Shown in pieces: positions 2,381 through 15,095 of a DNA stretch of 64,000 nucleotides. A program made the translations under genes and the position numbers. The stretch is from Escherichia phage A4. A model generated the notes under the pieces. It made no database searches and had not been told where the DNA came from. It worked only from the letters and a program-made list of their open reading frames with translations. Position 1 is the stretch's first letter. The number at the start of each line of letters is the position of its first letter. The stretch is taken from sequence record ON286972, one strand, 5' to 3'.

Positions 2381-5300
2381 TTAAGCAGTACGTTGAGCAA
2401 TAAACATATCTACTACTGGACTGTATCCATCATAAATCAACTGAACGATACTCACTCCACCTGGATTTGTGTTAATTTCACCACCAACGTTTGCATAAGT
2501 TCCGTCCCAATCAAAACTATGTCCACCAGTTGTATCTTGTGCGACATAGATATAATAAGAACCAGCTTTACCACTACCAATTAAACCAGTTATTGGTGTC
2601 ATCATTACGTTTTGATCTAGTGTTATATAATACACATTTGATAGACCATCTGGTGTCCAATTACCACCAACAGCAGCAGTACTTGCAGTAACTTTAGGTG
2701 ATGGAGTAACAGCATACTTTTTAGTAGTTACACTTTCAGTTACTAAATCAGCAATATCTGTATGTAGTGTACCTTCAATAGTTACATCTTTAGCAAATGT
2801 TGCATTTTCAGCAAATGAAGATGTACCAGTAACTGTGATTGCATCAGCAGACGCAGAACCTAGTGTTACAGCACCTTTAAGGTTAGTAGCACCAGTAATT
2901 GCTGCACCACCCGCAACTACATTGAAGCCACCCGCAGTGATTTCGATACCACCAGTACTAACAGTTAGTTTCTTACCGATAGTAACAACATCAGATAGTG
3001 TAGTTGCACCAGTAACTGCTAGAGTTGTGTTAATCTTAGCACTTGCCATAGTTGCTAGGCCAGAAGTTGTAATAGTTGCAGTAGTTACTGCACCAGACGC
3101 ACTAACGTTTGCACCAGACACATCACCAGTTGTGGTGATTGCACCATCACCAGCGTTGATAGTAGCACCATTAGTTGCAATACCACCTTTCAAAGTACTC
3201 AAACCTTCAGCAGTGATTGTTGAACCAACTGTTAGGGTTGTACCAGCAGCGATAAAGGTTGTAGAAGTTAGAGATTTAACTTCAACTGCACTTGCAGATT
3301 GGTCCAGTGTACCAATAATCTTACCACTAACAGTAAAGTCGCCAGTAGTTACTGCGTTACCATTAACAGTTAGGCTGTTAGCTGTTGAACCTTGTGCACC
3401 GAATGTTGCAGCACGTGCGTGCATATCTTCATCAGTAGTAATATCCTCAACTGCGTGAATTGTGGTATTAGAAGTTAATGAGTTCAGGGAAATATCCTGA
3501 CCAGCCAAATCTACTGAACCGTTAATATTACCAGCAACAAATAGGTTACTACCAATATAAGTATCACCAACAAATTGGATAGTTTCCGGTCTTGAACTAA
3601 CTTTAGGACCGATGATAATACCTTTCGCAGAAATATCAGCTTTAGGCATAGTCACAGTAGAAGCATCAGAGATGTTCACGGATGCACCATTAACAACCAA
3701 AGCACCACCAACAGTCAAACCAGTAGTTACCGCTGCACTACCAAATGTACCTTTACCAGTTGTGGTAATTGTAGTACCAGTAATGTCACCAGCAGCAGTG
3801 ATTGCGGTATTTGCACTAACAGCCAAACCACCAGTTAGAGTGCTTAGACCAGTAACTTCTAGTGTTTCTCTGGATTTCAAGCTTTTCGCATCAACTGGAG
3901 TAGTAGATAGATCCAATGTTCCAGGGTTTAGTGTTCCATTAATGGTAACATCACCAGAAACTGTTAGTGAACTGAGAGCAGCTTCACCAGCGGTTAGTTT
4001 TCCAGTTAGATTTGTAGTACCAGTAACAGCCAAAGCACCACCAGCACTTAGAGCACCAGTAACTTCCGCACTACTTAATGTAGCTTTACCACTTGTTGAA
4101 AGAGTAGTAGTGTTAGTACCACCATTTAGAGTTGAAACACCAGTAACAGTTAGTGTAGTACCAGCAGTTACAGAACCGAGTGCAGTTAAGTTAGCACTTG
4201 CATCAACACCTTCAACGTTTAGAACAGCAGAACCTAAGTTTAGGCTACCTTCAGGTGTAAATGCACCTTTAACAGTTAGGTCACCAGTAACAACTGCATC
4301 ACCTGAAACATCAACACTTGCTAGTGTTGCTTTACCAGAAGTTTGTAGAGTTGCGGATTGAACTTCACCAGTAGTTTTGATTAATGCAGAACCTGCATCA
4401 ACCCCACCAGATAGAGTACTTAGTCCAGTAACACCTAATGTTTCACCAATTGTCAAATAACCACCAACAGTTGCGTCATTATCAACTGCTACACCAACAC
4501 CAGTAGCACTTACTTGGATTGATTTAGAAGTAATTTTACCACCAACATCAACAGTACCATCAAAAGTTGCAGCACCTACAGTATGTAGGGTTGAACTTAG
4601 TGTAGTTGCACCAGAAATTGTTGGAGCACCAGTAATTGTACCAGTAGTTAGAATTAGGTCAGTACCAACAGTAGTACTTGTAGTACTTGCTAATGAGTTA
4701 GTTTCCAAATCAGCATTTGTGATAGTCAAGTTACCATCGATAGTAACGTCATTATCAACTTGTAGTGATTTAACAGTCAAATCAGTTGTACTAAAATCAA
4801 CGGAAGTTGCAGTGAAAGCACCTTCAACGTGCAAATCACCAGTAACATCTGTTGGTTTAGCTAGTGTTATTTTATCTCCAGCACTTGTGTATGAACCAGC
4901 ACTTACTGAACCATCAACCACTGCCGCAGCAGCAACTTTCAAGTTTCCAGAAGCAACAGTCAAGCCACCTTTAGCAGTAATACCACCGACGTTTACAGTT
5001 ACTGCGTTACCAAATGTTGAAGTACCAGTAACTTCAAGTGCACCAGAAACGGTCGCTTTACCACCGACTGTTGCATCACCAGTAACATTCAATTTACCAG
5101 CGGTTGCTTCAGTACTTGTTAGTTTTGGTAGAATACTTGGTTCAGTATTTTCAGTAACAGTAATAACACCAGAAGAAGTTAGTGATTTAACAGTTAGATC
5201 TGCCGCAGCAGCATTAATTGCACCATCAACAGTTAAGCTTCCACCAATGGTTGCACCTTCAGTTGTTGTTAATGATTTAGAACTGATATCAACTGGGCTT

Positions 5301-7918
5301 AAATCTAATCCACCTTCAGGTGTAAATGTACCTTTAACAGTTAAGTCACCATGTGCAACTGTATCATTTTCTAAATTAATACCATCGGTATTAACAATAG
5401 AAGGAGTAGTTACAGAAACAGCAGAAACAGCAGCCAATGTACTTTCACCAGTAACATTTAATGTAGAAATGTTTGCTGTAGTTACTGTTGCTGTACCAGT
5501 TGTACTGTTAGTTGTAGTAATATCAGTACTTTGTAATTTTGGTAGAATGTTAGTTCCAGTAGCATCATTACTAATCACAGGACCAGCACTAGTTAAAGAT
5601 TTAACACTTACATCTGCTGCACTTAAATCTACAGTACCATCAACAGTTAGGTTTCCACCTATATGTGCACTTTCAGATACATCAAGTGTTTTAACAGTTA
5701 CATCAGCCGCACTTAGGTCAATAACACCAGCCGTTAAAGTTCCAGTAACATTCAAATCACCACCAACTGATGCATTATGATCTACACTTAGACCAGTTCC
5801 GGTTCCGGTAATTTGTGCGGAAGCTGCGGTCACTTTAGTAGTTGCTGTGATATTTGGGGCAGAGATAGTACCGTCAGATTCAATTGAACCAGTTTCTAAT
5901 GCATCAGAACCAACACCAGTAACTTTACCAGTAACTTCAACTTTCAAGCCACTAAAGAGTGCGTTTCCACCAACACTTAGATTAGTTCCCACTGCAACTT
6001 CTTCAGTTGTGGTTACAGAATTAGGTAGAATGTCTAGACCATCAACGTTTGCTTTAATTGCAGCACCAGATAGTGTACCAGTAACGTTCAAATCTTTAAC
6101 AGTGGTTGTTTGACCAACAACTTCAAATAAACCATCAACTACCGTGTTACCAACCAATGTGGTAGTACCGTCAACTGTTAGGTTTCCAGATGCAGTTACG
6201 TCAACACCTTTAACATTACCAGATGCAGTTACATCTTTAGGAGTAATGTCTTGACCAGCTAGTGTAATACCAGTTGTAGTTCCAGTAACAGTCAAATCAG
6301 TTATAGTTGTGCCTTTTAGAACGGAATCCCCATCAACTGTTAGTGTACCAGAAGCATCTAGATTAACACCACTAATATTACCAGAAGCAGTTACATCTTT
6401 AGGTGTAATATCTTGACCAGAAATGTCAGGAACAAAACCAGTAACTGTACCAGTGAAATTAACGTCTTTGAATTGAGCCTTACCATCCACATCTAGAGTT
6501 AATGTATTTGGATCTTGTACCGCATTACCAGTTATTTTCAAATAATCAAATAGGTTCAAACCTTTTGCTGTAATACCGTAGGTAGATGCAGATACATCAC
6601 CAAATGTAGCAGTTTTCAGTACTGTTAGATTTGCTGGGGTCATTAATTCAGACTGTACTTCGTTTTGTAGAATTACAGTTGGGCGTAAACCAGGAGCAGT
6701 ATATGTAAAGTTAACTTTAGCATTCGTGTCTGCTACGTTTCCACCTAAAGTGACAGATTTTAAATTAGCATTCGCAGTTGAACCAACAATATTAGATTCT
6801 AGGTTTAATGCACCTTTTAGTGTAGTTAGTTTTTCAACAACTAAATTATCCGCAGTAATATCACTTAGTACAAAGTTACCTGATAGTGTTCCAGTAATAT
6901 CCAAATCACCAACAGTAGTTTTACCAGTAATATTAGTAGTTCCATCAACTTGTAGGTCAGTTAATTGTGTTTTACCTTTAGTTACACGTAGAATTGGTGT
7001 GGTTGGATCTTGTATTGAGTTACCAGAAAGTGTTAGGTAATCAAATAGGTTCAAACCTTTTGCGGTAATACCATTGGTTGCTGCTGATACATCACCAAAT
7101 GTAGCAGTTTTAAGTACTGTTAGATTTGCTGGAGTCATTAGCTCGGACTGTACTTCGTTTTGTAGAATTACAGTTGGGCGTAATCCTGGAGCAGTGTATG
7201 CAAAGCCTAGGCGTGCAGTCGAGTCCGCTGCATTAGAACCTAAAGATACAGCTTTTATGTTTGCTACAGTATTAGTACCAATGATGTTTGATTCTAGGGT
7301 TACAGCACCTTTTAATGTAGATAGTTTTTCAACAACTAAATTATCGGTATTAACATCCCCTAATGTGAAATCACCATCTAATTTACCAGTTACAGTTAGA
7401 TTCTCAACGGTTGCACCAGTTGCAGTAATATCAGTTGCTGATACAGTTGCAATGGTTGCTTCATTAGCAGTTAATTTATCAAAGCTTGCAGTGGTTGCTG
7501 CCGCAGCAGTGAGGTTACCATTTAATGTTGTTGTACCATTAACTTCTAATGCAGAAGTGGTGGTATCTTGAAAAATTGCTTTTCCTGATGTTTGTGTAAT
7601 ATCTTTGGCAAAAGTAGAAGTGCCATTAAAAGTAGCATTGGAATTAATAGTTGCTGTATCGGAACCAGCAGTAGTATTACCAATAACTGTATTGCCAAGT
7701 ACATCCATTCCACCCTTAAGTGACGCTTTGCCTGTAACATCGAGTGTTGTGTTGATTGTTGCTTGATCTACTGTAATTGCAGTGAAGGTAGCATCAGCGA
7801 AACTAACGGTCCCCTTAATGGTTACGTTTTTATCGAAGACCGCATTACCTTTAACTGATAATTCTTTACCAACATTAGTATTACCAGTTACTGCTAGATC
7901 TGTTTTTATCGAGTACAT
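2381..7918 (-). CDS. long tail fibre protein, highly repetitive
   Basis: 1845-aa ORF rich in Thr/Gly/Val/Ala with recurring LTVDG and DLTVKSL beta-strand-like repeats and two tandem ~165-aa repeats; GGAGGG Shine-Dalgarno before the ATG. Confidence 0.6.
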   Translation of the reverse strand: MYSIKTDLAVTGNTNVGKELSVKGNAVFDKNVTIKGTVSFADATFTAITVDQATINTTLDVTGKASLKGGMDVLGNTVIGNTTAGSDTATINSNATFNGTSTFAKDITQTSGKAIFQDTTTSALEVNGTTTLNGNLTAAAATTASFDKLTANEATIATVSATDITATGATVENLTVTGKLDGDFTLGDVNTDNLVVEKLSTLKGAVTLESNIIGTNTVANIKAVSLGSNAADSTARLGFAYTAPGLRPTVILQNEVQSELMTPANLTVLKTATFGDVSAATNGITAKGLNLFDYLTLSGNSIQDPTTPILRVTKGKTQLTDLQVDGTTNITGKTTVGDLDITGTLSGNFVLSDITADNLVVEKLTTLKGALNLESNIVGSTANANLKSVTLGGNVADTNAKVNFTYTAPGLRPTVILQNEVQSELMTPANLTVLKTATFGDVSASTYGITAKGLNLFDYLKITGNAVQDPNTLTLDVDGKAQFKDVNFTGTVTGFVPDISGQDITPKDVTASGNISGVNLDASGTLTVDGDSVLKGTTITDLTVTGTTTGITLAGQDITPKDVTASGNVKGVDVTASGNLTVDGTTTLVGNTVVDGLFEVVGQTTTVKDLNVTGTLSGAAIKANVDGLDILPNSVTTTEEVAVGTNLSVGGNALFSGLKVEVTGKVTGVGSDALETGSIESDGTISAPNITATTKVTAASAQITGTGTGLSVDHNASVGGDLNVTGTLTAGVIDLSAADVTVKTLDVSESAHIGGNLTVDGTVDLSAADVSVKSLTSAGPVISNDATGTNILPKLQSTDITTTNSTTGTATVTTANISTLNVTGESTLAAVSAVSVTTPSIVNTDGINLENDTVAHGDLTVKGTFTPEGGLDLSPVDISSKSLTTTEGATIGGSLTVDGAINAAAADLTVKSLTSSGVITVTENTEPSILPKLTSTEATAGKLNVTGDATVGGKATVSGALEVTGTSTFGNAVTVNVGGITAKGGLTVASGNLKVAAAAVVDGSVSAGSYTSAGDKITLAKPTDVTGDLHVEGAFTATSVDFSTTDLTVKSLQVDNDVTIDGNLTITNADLETNSLASTTSTTVGTDLILTTGTITGAPTISGATTLSSTLHTVGAATFDGTVDVGGKITSKSIQVSATGVGVAVDNDATVGGYLTIGETLGVTGLSTLSGGVDAGSALIKTTGEVQSATLQTSGKATLASVDVSGDAVVTGDLTVKGAFTPEGSLNLGSAVLNVEGVDASANLTALGSVTAGTTLTVTGVSTLNGGTNTTTLSTSGKATLSSAEVTGALSAGGALAVTGTTNLTGKLTAGEAALSSLTVSGDVTINGTLNPGTLDLSTTPVDAKSLKSRETLEVTGLSTLTGGLAVSANTAITAAGDITGTTITTTGKGTFGSAAVTTGLTVGGALVVNGASVNISDASTVTMPKADISAKGIIIGPKVSSRPETIQFVGDTYIGSNLFVAGNINGSVDLAGQDISLNSLTSNTTIHAVEDITTDEDMHARAATFGAQGSTANSLTVNGNAVTTGDFTVSGKIIGTLDQSASAVEVKSLTSTTFIAAGTTLTVGSTITAEGLSTLKGGIATNGATINAGDGAITTTGDVSGANVSASGAVTTATITTSGLATMASAKINTTLAVTGATTLSDVVTIGKKLTVSTGGIEITAGGFNVVAGGAAITGATNLKGAVTLGSASADAITVTGTSSFAENATFAKDVTIEGTLHTDIADLVTESVTTKKYAVTPSPKVTASTAAVGGNWTPDGLSNVYYITLDQNVMMTPITGLIGSGKAGSYYIYVAQDTTGGHSFDWDGTYANVGGEINTNPGGVSIVQLIYDGYSPVVDMFIAQRTA
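6404..7396. repeat. tandem intragenic duplication (2 x ~495 bp) in the long fibre gene
   Basis: DNA near 6541-6700 and 7041-7200 is near-identical; encodes two ~165-aa copies each containing TAPGLRPTVILQNEVQSELMTPANLTVLKTATFGDVSA. Confidence 0.7.
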
Positions 7919-8032: not shown

Positions 8033-8935
8033 TTATTTCCCAGCGATAACAATCTTACCACTGAATTGTTCATCAGATACAAAAGTAACATTACCATCTG
8101 TATCAATTTGTGTATCCACGAATACCAAATCAAACGGTGCAGATGCTGTTGAACCAGGTACATCATTACCATAGATTGCCACGTACAAAGAATCAGGACT
8201 TTGTTTATGTGTATCAGCAGTGACAGTGTAAGTGAATTTATCAGCAGCAGCAATCCAGTCTGCTTTGTTAATCAATTTTCCGTATGGGGTAGTCATAGCG
8301 GTTGCTCCTATAATATTAACTTTAACCTCAGTAATACCATCTGGGAGGCCAAGCATTTTAATTGTAATATCCCCAAATCCAGACACTGTAATTTCGGAAT
8401 TAACCACACTACGAATATTTGGATTACCGTCTGTTGGTGTATCTTCCATTTGAACTAAAATGTCACGACCACGGTCATGTTGTGATTCAGGAATGGTATA
8501 TGTATATTCATCGACTGTTCCAGGAATAAGAACAAATGCTGCAACAGGGACAGAGAATGAAGTTACATAAGGACTATCGGTTACTGGACCACCACCATTA
8601 AATGGTTTCCAAATCCCAAGGTCTTTAATATATATTTGAACGATGTTGGTTGCATCAACCATAAAATAAACATCACCATCAGTTCCTAGTGTATCAGCAG
8701 GAGCGATATCACCACGCAAAATACCACTTGCACCACTACCACCATGAGCATTAAAATATGCTAAGGTTACTAGGTGTGTGTTTGCGGTTGGGTCACCAGC
8801 AGAAACCGGAAGAAGTCTTGTTCCAGAATAATCTTGGATTTGCACAATATCACCATTTGTTGTGAATTGTGCACCATTTTTACCTAGAATAAATTTCTTC
8901 TTCAAAGTTCCTTCTAAATTAGAAAAAACTGCCAT
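8033..8935 (-). CDS. tail fibre / tailspike protein (short paralogue)
   Basis: 300-aa ORF; N-terminus MAVFSNLEGTLKKKFILGKNGA is near-identical to the N-terminus of the adjacent 723-aa protein. Confidence 0.5.
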   Translation of the reverse strand: MAVFSNLEGTLKKKFILGKNGAQFTTNGDIVQIQDYSGTRLLPVSAGDPTANTHLVTLAYFNAHGGSGASGILRGDIAPADTLGTDGDVYFMVDATNIVQIYIKDLGIWKPFNGGGPVTDSPYVTSFSVPVAAFVLIPGTVDEYTYTIPESQHDRGRDILVQMEDTPTDGNPNIRSVVNSEITVSGFGDITIKMLGLPDGITEVKVNIIGATAMTTPYGKLINKADWIAAADKFTYTVTADTHKQSPDSLYVAIYGNDVPGSTASAPFDLVFVDTQIDTDGNVTFVSDEQFSGKIVIAGK

Positions 8936-8952
8936 TTTGAAATATCTCCTTA

Positions 8953-11124
8953 TTATGGAAGTGTAATGTATGTAATTGGGGATTCGGCTAACAATGGAGT
9001 CCCATCAGGGAAAGCAGTTTTTATTTCGTCTGCTATATCAATGCAAAATACCGAGTTGACCACGTATGTAGCTCGTGTTATATGAGTGTGGAGATCAGTC
9101 CCATTTTCACCAGCACCAGGAATTACAATTCTTGTACCTGCTGCTTTAGCATATTGGTTTGTACCCCATGCAGTGTTATGTGTTCGAATAGTTTTAGCAC
9201 CAACTACTGCTGCTTTAAGCTGTTCATATTTTCCTACGAATGCACCAGCTACTGTTACTACATATTTACCCCCAGATTGTTTGTGTAAAATTGTTCCTTT
9301 GGGGAAATATCTACCACCTGGGAATTCATCATAAGGTAGATAATATTGCTCCGTGACTGGTATCAGTACTGGGCCACGGTGACCAGTTCCATCTATTTCA
9401 GTTGTTACCGTGAAGTTATTACCAGATTGATCTATTCTATCAACATACATTCGTGAGAATGAATAATTTGATATATTAGCGTCATCTTGAACTATATTAC
9501 CAATCCAACTGGTATATGTATAATTAGTTCTGGTATAAACGCCACCACCTTCACCATCTTGATATTGACCAATTACATCTAAATTCTTTGTATAAATTTT
9601 ACTGAATTTTGATGATGATGGTAATCCACGCCAATATAATTTTTCACAAGTTATATTGTGCATATCAGTTTCGTTAGTCCATGCGTTTGCACCGGATGTG
9701 TATATTTCTATACTAGATTCAGGAATGAAAACGTTTTGAACTTTAAAATCTTTTGGTGGACCTGCATACCATGCATATTGGTGTGTTGCATCAGCAGGGT
9801 TAACACCCCATGTAAATTTAATCATTCTGTTTGTTGGTGCAGTTGCTGGATCATCCAAATAGCGACCAGTTAATCCGTCAACAACAAAATCTTGACATCC
9901 ATAAGTGATGATACCTGCGGCAGTTAAGCCAGTTCCAGTTGATATTGTGGTTGATGGAAATGTCTCATTATCTATTATATTAAAATTCTTACCGACTTCA
10001 ACGTGTATACATTGACGACAGTTATATACTCTATTTCGAGCAATAGTGAAGTTTTTAACATATTGACTATCTGGAATATCAACTCCATATGGACCTTTAC
10101 CAGCAACACCGATACCGATACCCCAGTTTGATAGTGGGATTGGAGCGTTAGTACCATCAACGTTTTCAATATGGTTTCCTTCAATGATTAGACCATCAGT
10201 GAAGTGTCTTGAAACTACGTTTAATTCAATACCATCACCATAGATATCGTGAATATGGTTATATGCATAGCGAGCATATTTTACTATCTCACCACTACCA
10301 CCTTGCTGTAGAACACCAAAGTTAACATCGTACATTTCATTGAAACAAAAGTCGAGAATACCTTCTGAAGTTAAATCACGCATAAAGAATGCACAGGTGA
10401 ATGTTGTACCATAAAAGCGGTTGAAATAGAACTTACCATTACCACCAGAAAACTGAATATAACTACGAGCAATGTTTGCCCCTTGTATTTTACAGTTGGT
10501 TGCTGATATCATTGTTTTACCAGTGCCAGTTAATGTGCCACCATACCATTCAATATTTTCAAAATATATTGCTTTGGATAAACGATAAACACCTTTACCT
10601 TGTATTTGGATATCATGAGCTTTAGCGTAATCAGCACAAGCTTGAACTGCGTCAGTATCATCAGCAATACCATCACCGATAGCACCAAATTCTTCAGGTG
10701 TTATATAATACAAAGCTTGTTGTAGTGTTCCACCAGAAACCAAACCAATATAATCAGAACCATTAGTACTGGATAATACTTTAGTATTAACATACATTGA
10801 TTTTATCCATGCACCATTCTTCTTAGCGAAAATATCTAGGATACCACCACTTTCTTGGTCTAATTGCAAATAAGTATAATTATTCTTACCAAGACTATTA
10901 TCTGGGATTTCATTCCCAAATAATACGGTTGGGTGGTCAGCGAGATACTTTGCAGTAATCGCTGAATTATCATTAATCGGTTCACCAACTTGTACGGGCA
11001 ATAAGATGCTTCCGAAACTATCTGTAATAGACAGGGAATTGTTAGCATAATTAATTAATGCCCCATTTTTACCAAGTATAAACTTGGTTTTCATTGTCCC
11101 TTCAAAGTTAGAAAAAACTGCCAT
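8953..11124 (-). CDS. tailspike protein with probable parallel beta-helix (putative depolymerase)
   Basis: 723-aa ORF; shared N-terminal anchor MAVFSNFEGTMKTKFILGKNGA; central region has periodic hydrophobic/Asn/Gly turns (IIEGNHIENV..., FTIARNRVYNC...) typical of pectate-lyase-fold tailspikes. Confidence 0.5.
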   Translation of the reverse strand: MAVFSNFEGTMKTKFILGKNGALINYANNSLSITDSFGSILLPVQVGEPINDNSAITAKYLADHPTVLFGNEIPDNSLGKNNYTYLQLDQESGGILDIFAKKNGAWIKSMYVNTKVLSSTNGSDYIGLVSGGTLQQALYYITPEEFGAIGDGIADDTDAVQACADYAKAHDIQIQGKGVYRLSKAIYFENIEWYGGTLTGTGKTMISATNCKIQGANIARSYIQFSGGNGKFYFNRFYGTTFTCAFFMRDLTSEGILDFCFNEMYDVNFGVLQQGGSGEIVKYARYAYNHIHDIYGDGIELNVVSRHFTDGLIIEGNHIENVDGTNAPIPLSNWGIGIGVAGKGPYGVDIPDSQYVKNFTIARNRVYNCRQCIHVEVGKNFNIIDNETFPSTTISTGTGLTAAGIITYGCQDFVVDGLTGRYLDDPATAPTNRMIKFTWGVNPADATHQYAWYAGPPKDFKVQNVFIPESSIEIYTSGANAWTNETDMHNITCEKLYWRGLPSSSKFSKIYTKNLDVIGQYQDGEGGGVYTRTNYTYTSWIGNIVQDDANISNYSFSRMYVDRIDQSGNNFTVTTEIDGTGHRGPVLIPVTEQYYLPYDEFPGGRYFPKGTILHKQSGGKYVVTVAGAFVGKYEQLKAAVVGAKTIRTHNTAWGTNQYAKAAGTRIVIPGAGENGTDLHTHITRATYVVNSVFCIDIADEIKTAFPDGTPLLAESPITYITLP

Positions 11125-11137
11125 TAATCAATCCCCC

Positions 11138-12265
11138 TTAGATGTTGTTTTCAATTGGTTGGATTGGTGCTTGCCATGCTAGAGTACAAATTACTTTCAT
11201 TTGACCATAATTACTGTTATTAACTGATTCATTAAAAACACAAGCAATGATTTCATCTTCTGCTGACGGTTCATGGTTTGTTTCATTAACGATAAAGCGT
11301 AGTGCACGGTTGATATCAAAATAATCAACTGGTGCAATAATAGTACCACCGATATCTTCTTGTGCTTCCCCACCTACACGAATGTGCATTTCAGTTACAG
11401 GGTCAATATAAGCTTGGGTGATATCAACTTCAATATTAGTTACTACATAACCTGCTGGGCATGTACCGATTACCAATACTGCGTTGGTCCATGAATGATC
11501 AATCGTGTTTACAACGATAATTGAATCTTTACCATTCTGACCCGGATCACCTTGCTTACCTTCTGGACCAGGTTCACCATCTTTACCACGGAACTCAATA
11601 CCTTCACTCCATTCTTTTGTTGGAGGGGTGGTTTGATTATTAATATCTACGTAATATAGTTTTCCATCAGTCGTGTTATAGAAGCAATAATCTTCTGGTA
11701 AGTTATCAATACTTGGGAAAGCAGGACCGTCACTGTCAATATGGAAACGACCACGTGGACCTTGTTCACCACGGAAATCAATACCATTACTCCATGAACC
11801 AGCTTTTTGATTATAAAAATACACTTTACCATCGGAAGTATTATAGAAAGTATATTGGTCAAATAGACCAGTGGTTGGGAAAACAGGACCAGAAGAATCA
11901 ATTTTAAATGATTTACCTGGTGCACCAGTATCACCTTTACCAAATTCTACTGTGTTCCAAGTACTTGGTTCTACACCAGCATCATTTGTTTTAAAATATA
12001 GTTTTGCAGTTCCATTTGCTAGACTTAAATAACACCAACCTTCTGGTTTATCAACTGCAAATGTACCGTCTGGTATTTCCATACCAACATCATCAGGATA
12101 GAAATTTTTACCATTAGTACCGTCATGTCCAACGACTAGACCCAAATCTTGTATTGTATTATCAGCGAATGTTACAATCAAATGTCCAGCAGAGTTAATT
12201 ACTAAACTCTTAATACCAGAATTGTTACATGAACCGCCAGACCCATTGTTGAATGAAATTGTCAT
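11138..12265 (-). CDS. tail fibre protein with collagen-like Gly-X-Y repeats
   Basis: 375-aa ORF with GDTGAPGKS, GEQGPRGRF and GKDGEPGPEGKQGDPGQNGKD triplet runs, each followed by an FxIDSxGPxFP...FYNTxDGK unit, repeated three times. Confidence 0.55.
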   Translation of the reverse strand: MTISFNNGSGGSCNNSGIKSLVINSAGHLIVTFADNTIQDLGLVVGHDGTNGKNFYPDDVGMEIPDGTFAVDKPEGWCYLSLANGTAKLYFKTNDAGVEPSTWNTVEFGKGDTGAPGKSFKIDSSGPVFPTTGLFDQYTFYNTSDGKVYFYNQKAGSWSNGIDFRGEQGPRGRFHIDSDGPAFPSIDNLPEDYCFYNTTDGKLYYVDINNQTTPPTKEWSEGIEFRGKDGEPGPEGKQGDPGQNGKDSIIVVNTIDHSWTNAVLVIGTCPAGYVVTNIEVDITQAYIDPVTEMHIRVGGEAQEDIGGTIIAPVDYFDINRALRFIVNETNHEPSAEDEIIACVFNESVNNSNYGQMKVICTLAWQAPIQPIENNI

Positions 12266-14600: not shown

Positions 14601-14633
14601 CAAAAGAAAAGGAGCCATTGGCTCCTTTTTTTA
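14601..14633. terminator. bidirectional rho-independent terminator
   Basis: aaaagaaaaGGAGCCattGGCTCCttttttt at a convergent junction; T-runs on both strands. Confidence 0.7.
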
Positions 14634-15095
14634 ATATCTATATGGTAGACTATTGACAAATTGTGTACCAGCGTTTATACTTTCCCATAAAGAATAAAAA
14701 TCTTTCATCAAATTGACATTTAATAATGTATTTTTAGCTCCAGGGTGAAGAGGTTTAGGCCATGAGCCAATTTTAACCCAAGCATATCCAGAGCTTTCCT
14801 TATTGAGAATAGGAACAAACTCATTTTCAACAACAACAACGAAAGAATAATATTTGAACTTACCATTCTTAGTACAAAATACATCAAAGGGTATAATATC
14901 AATTATATCAGGTAACGAATCTCCCAATTCTTCTCGTATTTCACGATGCAAAGCTTGCAAAGGGGATTCGTTGTATTCGAGTTTTCCACCAACAAAAGCC
15001 CAGTTGTTTGAATAGGTACTGCTTTCAGATCTAAGATTGAGCATCATATGACCAGTACTTTTAGATAAAAATATTGCTCCTACTGCCTCATTCAT
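14631..15095 (-). CDS. Nudix hydrolase
   Basis: Complete Nudix box GKLEYNESPLQALHREIREELGD (GX5EX7REUXEEXGU). Confidence 0.8.
   Translation of the reverse strand: MNEAVGAIFLSKSTGHMMLNLRSESSTYSNNWAFVGGKLEYNESPLQALHREIREELGDSLPDIIDIIPFDVFCTKNGKFKYYSFVVVVENEFVPILNKESSGYAWVKIGSWPKPLHPGAKNTLLNVNLMKDFYSLWESINAGTQFVNSLPYRY

Follow-up and report, generated by a model that had tools for sequence, protein, structure and literature searches.

What do two neighbouring phage proteins share when they begin alike and end differently, and what does each of them do? The question is raised by a locus of Escherichia phage A4 (sequence record ON286972), from which a stretch of 64,000 nucleotides (nt), the window, was analysed. 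The list of open reading frames (ORFs) places two minus-strand ORFs at exactly 8033-8935 (300 amino acids [aa], the short gene) and 8953-11124 (723 aa, the long gene), and the N-termini of the two products read MAVFSNLEGTLKKKFILGKNGA and MAVFSNFEGTMKTKFILGKNGA. The initial annotation regarded them as paralogous spikes that share an anchor and differ by exchange of receptor-binding domains. The results described below point to a common module of ~110 residues, probably a virion anchor, which carries a colanidase body on the long protein and predicted immunoglobulin-like (Ig-like) domains on the short one.

The quoted N-terminal peptide is present on both proteins, with 19 of 22 residues identical, and the encoding DNA is likewise similar (54/66 nt by own count, 8870-8935 versus 11059-11124). 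The 5' ends form a direct repeat of 67 nt with 82% identity. One copy lies at 8870-8936 in the short gene, the other at 11059-11125 in the long gene, with a repeat spacing of 2,189 bp. The two 5' ends differ in eleven codons, eight of them synonymous, which indicates conservation selected at the protein level. A recent gene conversion between the 5' ends was rejected, since most differences are synonymous.

After this peptide the two sequences had been described as diverging completely. In BLASTP, similarity extends over residues 1-~110 with 39% identity and an E-value of 2e-18, far above chance; past residue 22 and up to ~110, the identity between the two modules is 27%. Beyond residue 110 the description holds. 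BLASTP found no homology there, and hhalign of the short-protein family against an alignment of colanidase bodies yielded a probability of 0.2% and an E-value of 0.34, so that a sensitive alignment, too, shows no homology of the C-terminal parts. The term paralogues therefore fits the first ~110 codons and does not fit the bodies, which are unrelated. The N-module of the long protein (aa 1-110) is encoded at 10795-11124 on the minus strand, comprises a head of aa 1-~62 and one beta-unit of ~45 aa, and covers positions 1-116 of a module hidden Markov model (HMM). That of the short protein (aa 1-112; 8600-8935, minus strand) consists of a near-invariant 21-aa peptide, a small beta meander, a Gly-rich linker and a beta-unit of ~45 aa. 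A third copy was found in the 64-kb window neither by tblastn nor by the module HMM.

At the DNA level, the first 63-69 nt of the short gene (8867-8935) show 81-89% identity in other genera. These are jumbo phages of Erwinia, Yersinia, Serratia, Pectobacterium, Cronobacter and Xanthomonas, in which the flanks are too diverged for megablast. The segment stands out as an island of conservation at the DNA level and may be a point of recombination.

The body of the long protein (aa 110-723; 8956-10797, minus strand) resembles a solved enzyme. A phmmer search against the PDB aligned residues 104-722 with residues 17-623 of 6E0V_A, the colanidase gp150 of phage phi92 (E 6e-216). The gene matches phrog_6117 (E 5.8e-229), annotated as 'colanic acid degradation', and is by synteny the orthologue of PBECO4 gp547 (also 'colanic acid degradation') and 121Q gp573. 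The identity to the Asteriusvirus orthologues amounts to 62-64% on the amino acid level. PBECO4 gp547 and 121Q gp573 occupy the same gene position, show the same partial similarity to WcaM and differ from the long protein by divergence only. The primary paper on the PBECO4 colanic-acid enzyme is reportedly Kim et al. 2015, Appl Environ Microbiol 81:900. The WcaM match (TIGR04004/NF007517; colanic acid gene cluster) covers residues 263-418 with an E-value of 6e-24. It stays well under the equivalog cut-off, which is what a remote relative matching in part should do. Pfam, including its beta-helix models, gave nothing useful for the long protein up to an E-value of 10. The assignment as a colanidase (depolymerase) tailspike, made here on homology, agrees with the depolymerase that the initial annotation had suspected in the longer protein. 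A fold of the trimeric beta-helix type is predicted from the homology (52% identity) to the solved structure. In PMC13450770, phi92 gp150 is cited as hydrolyzing the beta-1,4 glucose-fucose (Glc-Fuc) bond of colanic acid, and in PMC10059673 colanic-acid hydrolysis by PBECO4 gp547 is cited as known. A recent classification treats 'colanidase-like' depolymerases as a structural class of their own (PMC13385381).

Two short nucleotide matches were observed in the colanidase core. A segment of 62 nt (10085-10146) shares 93.5% identity with the tail spike gene of Shigella virus Moo19 (72 kb), and a 41-nt stretch shares 95% with the rV5-like phage LNA4. An interpretation of these megablast matches as recombination tracts was rejected; they appear to be islands of 41-62 nt inside the conserved catalytic core.

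The colanidase body occurs in four settings. It is present in phi92-like Justusliebigvirus (52% identity, over 639 aa to the colanidase of Justusliebigvirus SD2), in rV5-like phages of ~145-150 kb (33-35%), in phages of ~42 kb (28-32%) and in Asteriusvirus. In the 804-aa SD2 colanidase, solid homology starts at its residue ~197, equivalent to residue ~108 of the window protein, and the N-termini are unrelated. The same holds for phi92 gp150 (6E0V/6E0W): the catalytic and C-terminal body (aa ~108-723) is alike, with the long protein 52% identical to the phi92 type, whereas the N-terminus of ~195 residues in the phi92-type colanidase is unrelated to the ~108 residues of the long protein. The homology junction coincides with the end of the module common with the short protein, and the long protein is thus a clean two-part chimera.

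The shared module itself appears to be composed of two parts, a head (aa 1-~64) and a single beta-unit of ~45 aa (aa ~65/70-112). An HMM of 28 module sequences was run against 1.84 billion representative proteins. A word-indexed profile search with the N-module had yielded no more than seven short proteins, none of them from the 300-aa family, so the exhaustive HMM search was needed. Module positions 65-112 match hundreds of long proteins, often 5-16 times per protein; in a cell-wall-anchored protein (P0086), such ~45-aa units alternate with collagen Gly-X-Y repeats. Positions 1-~70 match alone at the extreme N-terminus of proteins of 705-1366 aa with differing bodies. At least five different distal architectures follow the head, among them the colanidase of the long protein and the tandem Ig-like domains of the short protein. 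Further bodies are a pectate-lyase-like region with an S74 intramolecular chaperone (P0105), a Beta_helix region (P0115) and, in fibres, BNR/Sortilin-type repeats that are predicted propellers (P0127 and P0180).

P0105 and P0115 are encoded four genes apart on the same uncultured 120-kb contig (L010, Logan SRR18476386). What they have in common is limited to the N-terminal part, with the head (aa 1-~65) and a further stretch to aa ~150-175. This pair on one contig repeats the situation of the window. The two loci, L010 8001-10343 and 16571-18343, encode two different spikes of the beta-helix type, 780 and 705 aa, with the same head. Both proteins have a precomputed Pfam match to PF27114 'Phage_tail_beta', of which no mention was found in the literature searched. 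Modular exchange, as proposed in the initial annotation, was thus found for the colanidase body, which stands behind unrelated N-termini, and for the head, which precedes differing bodies; the short protein is not part of the swap.

Among cultured phages, the head was found only in 71 RaK2-like jumbo phages. Ten of the 17 invariant module positions fall in the first 21 residues, which are almost invariant throughout this group. In the monomer model, the predicted local distance difference test (pLDDT) score of residues 1-8 is below 50, which a segment that becomes ordered only on binding should show. The head is probably a group-specific virion anchor, and the beta-unit, as a putative trimerisation unit, probably trimerises the chain. 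Profile matches connect module aa ~70-112 with the ~45-aa 'GxDGDxY...Y.KD.G.W.P' units of bacterial and phage collagen-like proteins; the structural match to the collagen trimerisation fold (XV/XVIII NC1) is weak. Unlike the collagen-like proteins, the long and the short protein each have a single unit, without a flanking Gly-X-Y triple helix. The relation of the beta-unit to collagen-type units is a resemblance, not an established membership.

The short gene (8033-8935, minus strand) matches phrog_10468 (E 6.7e-78). It is a plain orthologue of 121Q gp572, PBECO4 gp548 and CBB_227, which agree with it in length, are homologous over the full length and are likewise flanked by the tail protein and the giant fibre. 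The identity to 121Q gp572 is 64%, that to other genera 45-50%, and PBECO4 gp548 is annotated as 'virion structural protein'. CBB_227 has been identified in CBB virions by electrospray ionisation tandem mass spectrometry (ESI-MS/MS) with 5 peptides and 32% coverage (PMC5259590). The databases contain 71 homologues of 203-309 aa, 70 of them with 284-309 aa. All 46 aligned homologues are full-length, and their distal domains are homologous throughout the nine host genera. The hosts of phages with the full-length protein comprise E. coli, Salmonella, Erwinia, Yersinia, Serratia, Pectobacterium, Cronobacter, Xanthomonas and Klebsiella aerogenes. The protein was aligned end to end, with 41-83% identity, in every other genus examined; the RaK2 group keeps the N-domain only.

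Mean identity to the short protein of the window is 63% in the module (aa 1-112), 36% for aa 113-210 and 52% for aa 211-300. The C-terminal motif FSGK(V/I)VI(S/A)GK is near-invariant, and the last 10 residues are 92% conserved. Structure prediction models the distal part (8036-8599, minus strand) as two generic Ig-like beta-sandwiches, a variable one (aa 113-210) and a more conserved one (aa 211-300). Searches of Pfam (up to an E-value of 10) and NCBIfam with the short protein gave nothing useful, the PDB sequence search yielded no match, and Foldseek of the model against the PDB had no match at E <= 0.001. As a virion component the short protein is conserved, with a middle domain that varies. 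The suggestion that it is a swapped receptor-binding variant was not confirmed, in view of its full-length conservation whatever the host and its predicted generic Ig-like sandwiches.

The distribution of both genes indicates which one is the older resident. The order tail protein, short protein and giant fibre, without a colanidase, is present in Yersinia phage fHe-Yen9-04, in Pectobacterium phage CBB, in other isolates and in 16 of 18 IMG/VR loci. In the loci surveyed, the extra colanidase gene occurs in the E. coli lineage only. On this comparison, the short protein appears to be the original resident, retained throughout the group. Between the window and 121Q, the long-type modules have an identity of 58%, against 34-41% to each of the short-type modules; this makes the second copy either old or derived from a distant relative.

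A stand-alone form of the module was found in RaK2. Its ORF061w (L003 10414-10761), 115 aa, represents the whole N-module alone, and the same ORF is present in K64-1, Muenster and others (Alcyoneusvirus). In the RaK2-type Klebsiella phages, the tail protein is followed by the 115-aa module ORF and then directly by the gp569 homologue. These phages have neither colanidase nor giant fibre nor gp570, and of the short protein the distal two thirds are missing (PMC5259590 and locus comparison). The stand-alone ORF suggests a need for the module even without a distal part, and the giant fibre may be the partner with which the Ig-like part of the short protein works. ORF061 is not mentioned in the RaK2 literature searched. 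No description of the N-module common to the gp572- and gp573-type proteins, of its two parts or of its RaK2 stand-alone form was found in the literature searched.

The colanidase gene is disrupted in several relatives. A sibling of the window phage, ~99% identical and with an identical short protein, is present as a 357,761-bp contig in the E. coli isolate assembly GCA_012813795.2 (L004). It has lost 1,803 bp in frame between two ACAAT microhomologies of 5 nt (9290/9295-11092/11097, minus strand). The remnant of 122 aa fuses residues 1-10 to residues 612-723. The deletion was found in L004 and L005 (Logan SRR2034070), in both at 9615-9983; the two possibly originate from the same culture. Three further substitutions are present in the remaining 337 nt of the gene, and the sibling is thus not the same isolate as the window. 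A different in-frame deletion was detected in the cultured phage JP4 (L008 2501-3106) and the E. coli-derived P0073. It leaves 201 aa, roughly residues 1-150 and the last ~54. In JP4, the remnant is still annotated as 'colanic acid degradation'. In JNE01 (L007 2844-4986), a frameshift just after the module results in ORFs of 141 and 588 aa. The 141-aa, anchor-only product of this type (P0077) is encoded on 28 contigs. The 588-aa ORF overlaps the 141-aa ORF and has a TTG start; if translated, it would be an anchorless soluble enzyme. The three lesions are independent. The colanidase gene is accessory, dispensable and often broken.

From these observations the following course may be proposed. 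The module would attach both proteins to the virion, with the baseplate or the fibre base as the most likely site, and the beta-unit, of a kind repeated in collagen-like fibre proteins, would trimerise the chain. The distal part behind the anchor would do the work. As a glycoside hydrolase, the colanidase would cut the colanic-acid exopolysaccharide of E. coli and thereby allow the phage to reach the cell surface. The colanidase gene would have been added in the E. coli-infecting lineage only, by fusion of an anchor copy with a catalytic body that also circulates in phi92-like, rV5-like and small short-genome phages; the fusion point (~aa 108) falls cleanly between domains. The accessory gene would later have been lost or broken several times.

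Several results weigh against a common anchor. The head has no significant match to solved anchor domains, including CBA120 TSP4 and T4 gp10-like domains, and structural comparison of the N-module with the T4 gp10-like and CBA120 TSP assembly domains (XD, AD) revealed no such similarity. The virion proteome of phAPEC6 contains gp253 and gp256 and, judged by gene number in a record without annotation, no apparent match for the two genes between them. The deletion in the sibling leaves only 10 head residues. The colanidase site can thus stay empty or be otherwise filled, which is compatible with anchoring and does not prove it.

A common anchor with different bodies remains the probable explanation, and three alternatives have been considered beside it. 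The short protein may be a structural adaptor that links the 1,845-aa fibre to the baseplate; the colanidase would then be the sole host-interacting appendage, and the virion would not carry the 'two different spikes' of the initial annotation. This is possible, if tentative. It is favoured by the full-length conservation of the short protein in phages of nine host genera and by its conserved last 10 residues. It is also favoured by the RaK2-type phages, which have neither the giant fibre nor the gp570 homologue and in which precisely the C-terminal two thirds of this protein are lost, the 115-aa N-module being kept as an intact ORF. In every examined locus with the fibre, the short gene is located between tail protein and fibre. 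Competition of both heads for one docking site, leading to mosaic virions with variable proportions of colanidase and Ig-like protein, is doubtful. The near-identity of the first 22 residues and the near-invariance of this peptide in the whole group would agree with a single site, as would the single head-bearing gene that most genera have at this locus and the deletion of the colanidase without loss of viability in the cultured phage JP4. However, the modules are only 27% identical past residue 22, and the long-type modules are set apart (58% among themselves versus 34-41% to the short type). As a group of their own they fit an adaptation to a different site or partner. A bolder version takes the 21-aa peptide to be a universal plug that fits a single socket in the RaK2-like tail, for which in the E. 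coli lineage two proteins compete to give mosaic virions; the deletions, the frameshift and the 67-nt repeats would then serve a switch between capsule-degrading and plain particles. It is a shade more doubtful still.

It is very improbable that the N-terminal identity reflects a function of the nucleic acid itself, such as a translation-initiation or regulatory element or a recombination box. The conservation island at the start of the short gene, retained among genera otherwise too diverged for megablast, and the position of the two window copies as direct repeats flanking the colanidase cassette would be in line with it. Against it stand the mostly synonymous differences, the dissimilar upstream ribosome-binding regions, the protein similarity that runs on for ~90 residues further, and the retention of the peptide in distant proteins with different codons. 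A role in recombination is possible as a by-product but does not explain the conservation.

An anchor combined with an exchangeable body is the standard design of tailspikes. The same logic, with enzymatic bodies exchanged behind a conserved N-terminal region that binds the particle, is realized in the branched or multi-spike adsorption complexes of CBA120 (TSP1-4), RaK2 (gp526-534) and phi92. Several such spike proteins per genome have been reviewed for CBA120 and RaK2 (PMC10253068). Annotated orthologues of both genes exist in 121Q and PBECO4, and the colanidase family is structurally solved and characterised; the sharing of the module, its two parts and the RaK2 stand-alone form extend the known theme. 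The delimited anchor (a head of ~64 aa and a trimerisation-like unit, with the junction at ~aa 108) offers a rational fusion point for the engineering of depolymerases. It may also serve as a search key for receptor-binding proteins of this jumbo-phage group in metagenomes. The accessory and often broken state of the colanidase cassette matters when phages for therapy or against biofilms are chosen by the annotation 'colanic acid degradation'. A conserved, unassigned tail site, to which RaK2 ORF061w and the short protein point, could be resolved by structural work.

The first 20 kb of the window align with Asteriusvirus (121Q, PBECO4, phAPEC6 and others) at ~75-77% nucleotide identity over ~60% of the length, and no closer phage record was present in the collection searched with these 20 kb. 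The window sequence is not present in the complete E. coli genomes searched. By nucleotide identity (~75%), the phage is a new species-level relative of Asteriusvirus, a jumbo myovirus, and the stretch is its tail-fibre region. Gene order in the window is the same as in 121Q gp569-gp582. The genes for the 375-aa tail protein, the colanidase, the 300-aa protein and the 1,845-aa fibre are tightly spaced on the minus strand. The gap between the long and the short gene measures 17 nt and holds an AAGGAG ribosome-binding site; the 375-aa ORF lies 13 nt upstream of the long gene.

The 375-aa tail protein gene (11138-12265, minus strand; phrog_13565) encodes a candidate docking partner of the module. 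It is located directly upstream of a head-bearing gene, at <=~100 bp, in 17 of 18 IMG/VR loci and in all isolate loci examined. In the exception (L029, IMG/VR), the distance is ~700 bp. Besides WW-like repeats, the protein has a short Gly-X-Y stretch of collagen-like type (aa 227-246). A repeat common to the N-module and this protein, suggested by the look of the collagen-flanked repeats in the latter, was dropped after hhalign gave an E-value of 0.24 and hmmsearch found no similarity. The RaK2 homologue of the tail protein was not detected by mass spectrometry (PMC3622015).

Downstream of the short gene and in the same transcriptional direction follows the 1,845-aa fibre gene (2381-7918, minus strand), which is 121Q gp571-like. 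The fibre has a highly repetitive sequence with a high content of Thr, Gly, Val and Ser. The composition of its gene gives rise to many long spurious ORFs on the opposite strand, e.g. 4719-5780 on the plus strand. A gene for a NUDIX (MutT-like) hydrolase (14631-15095, minus strand) is located among the tail genes, as are 121Q gp578 and RaK2 mutT.

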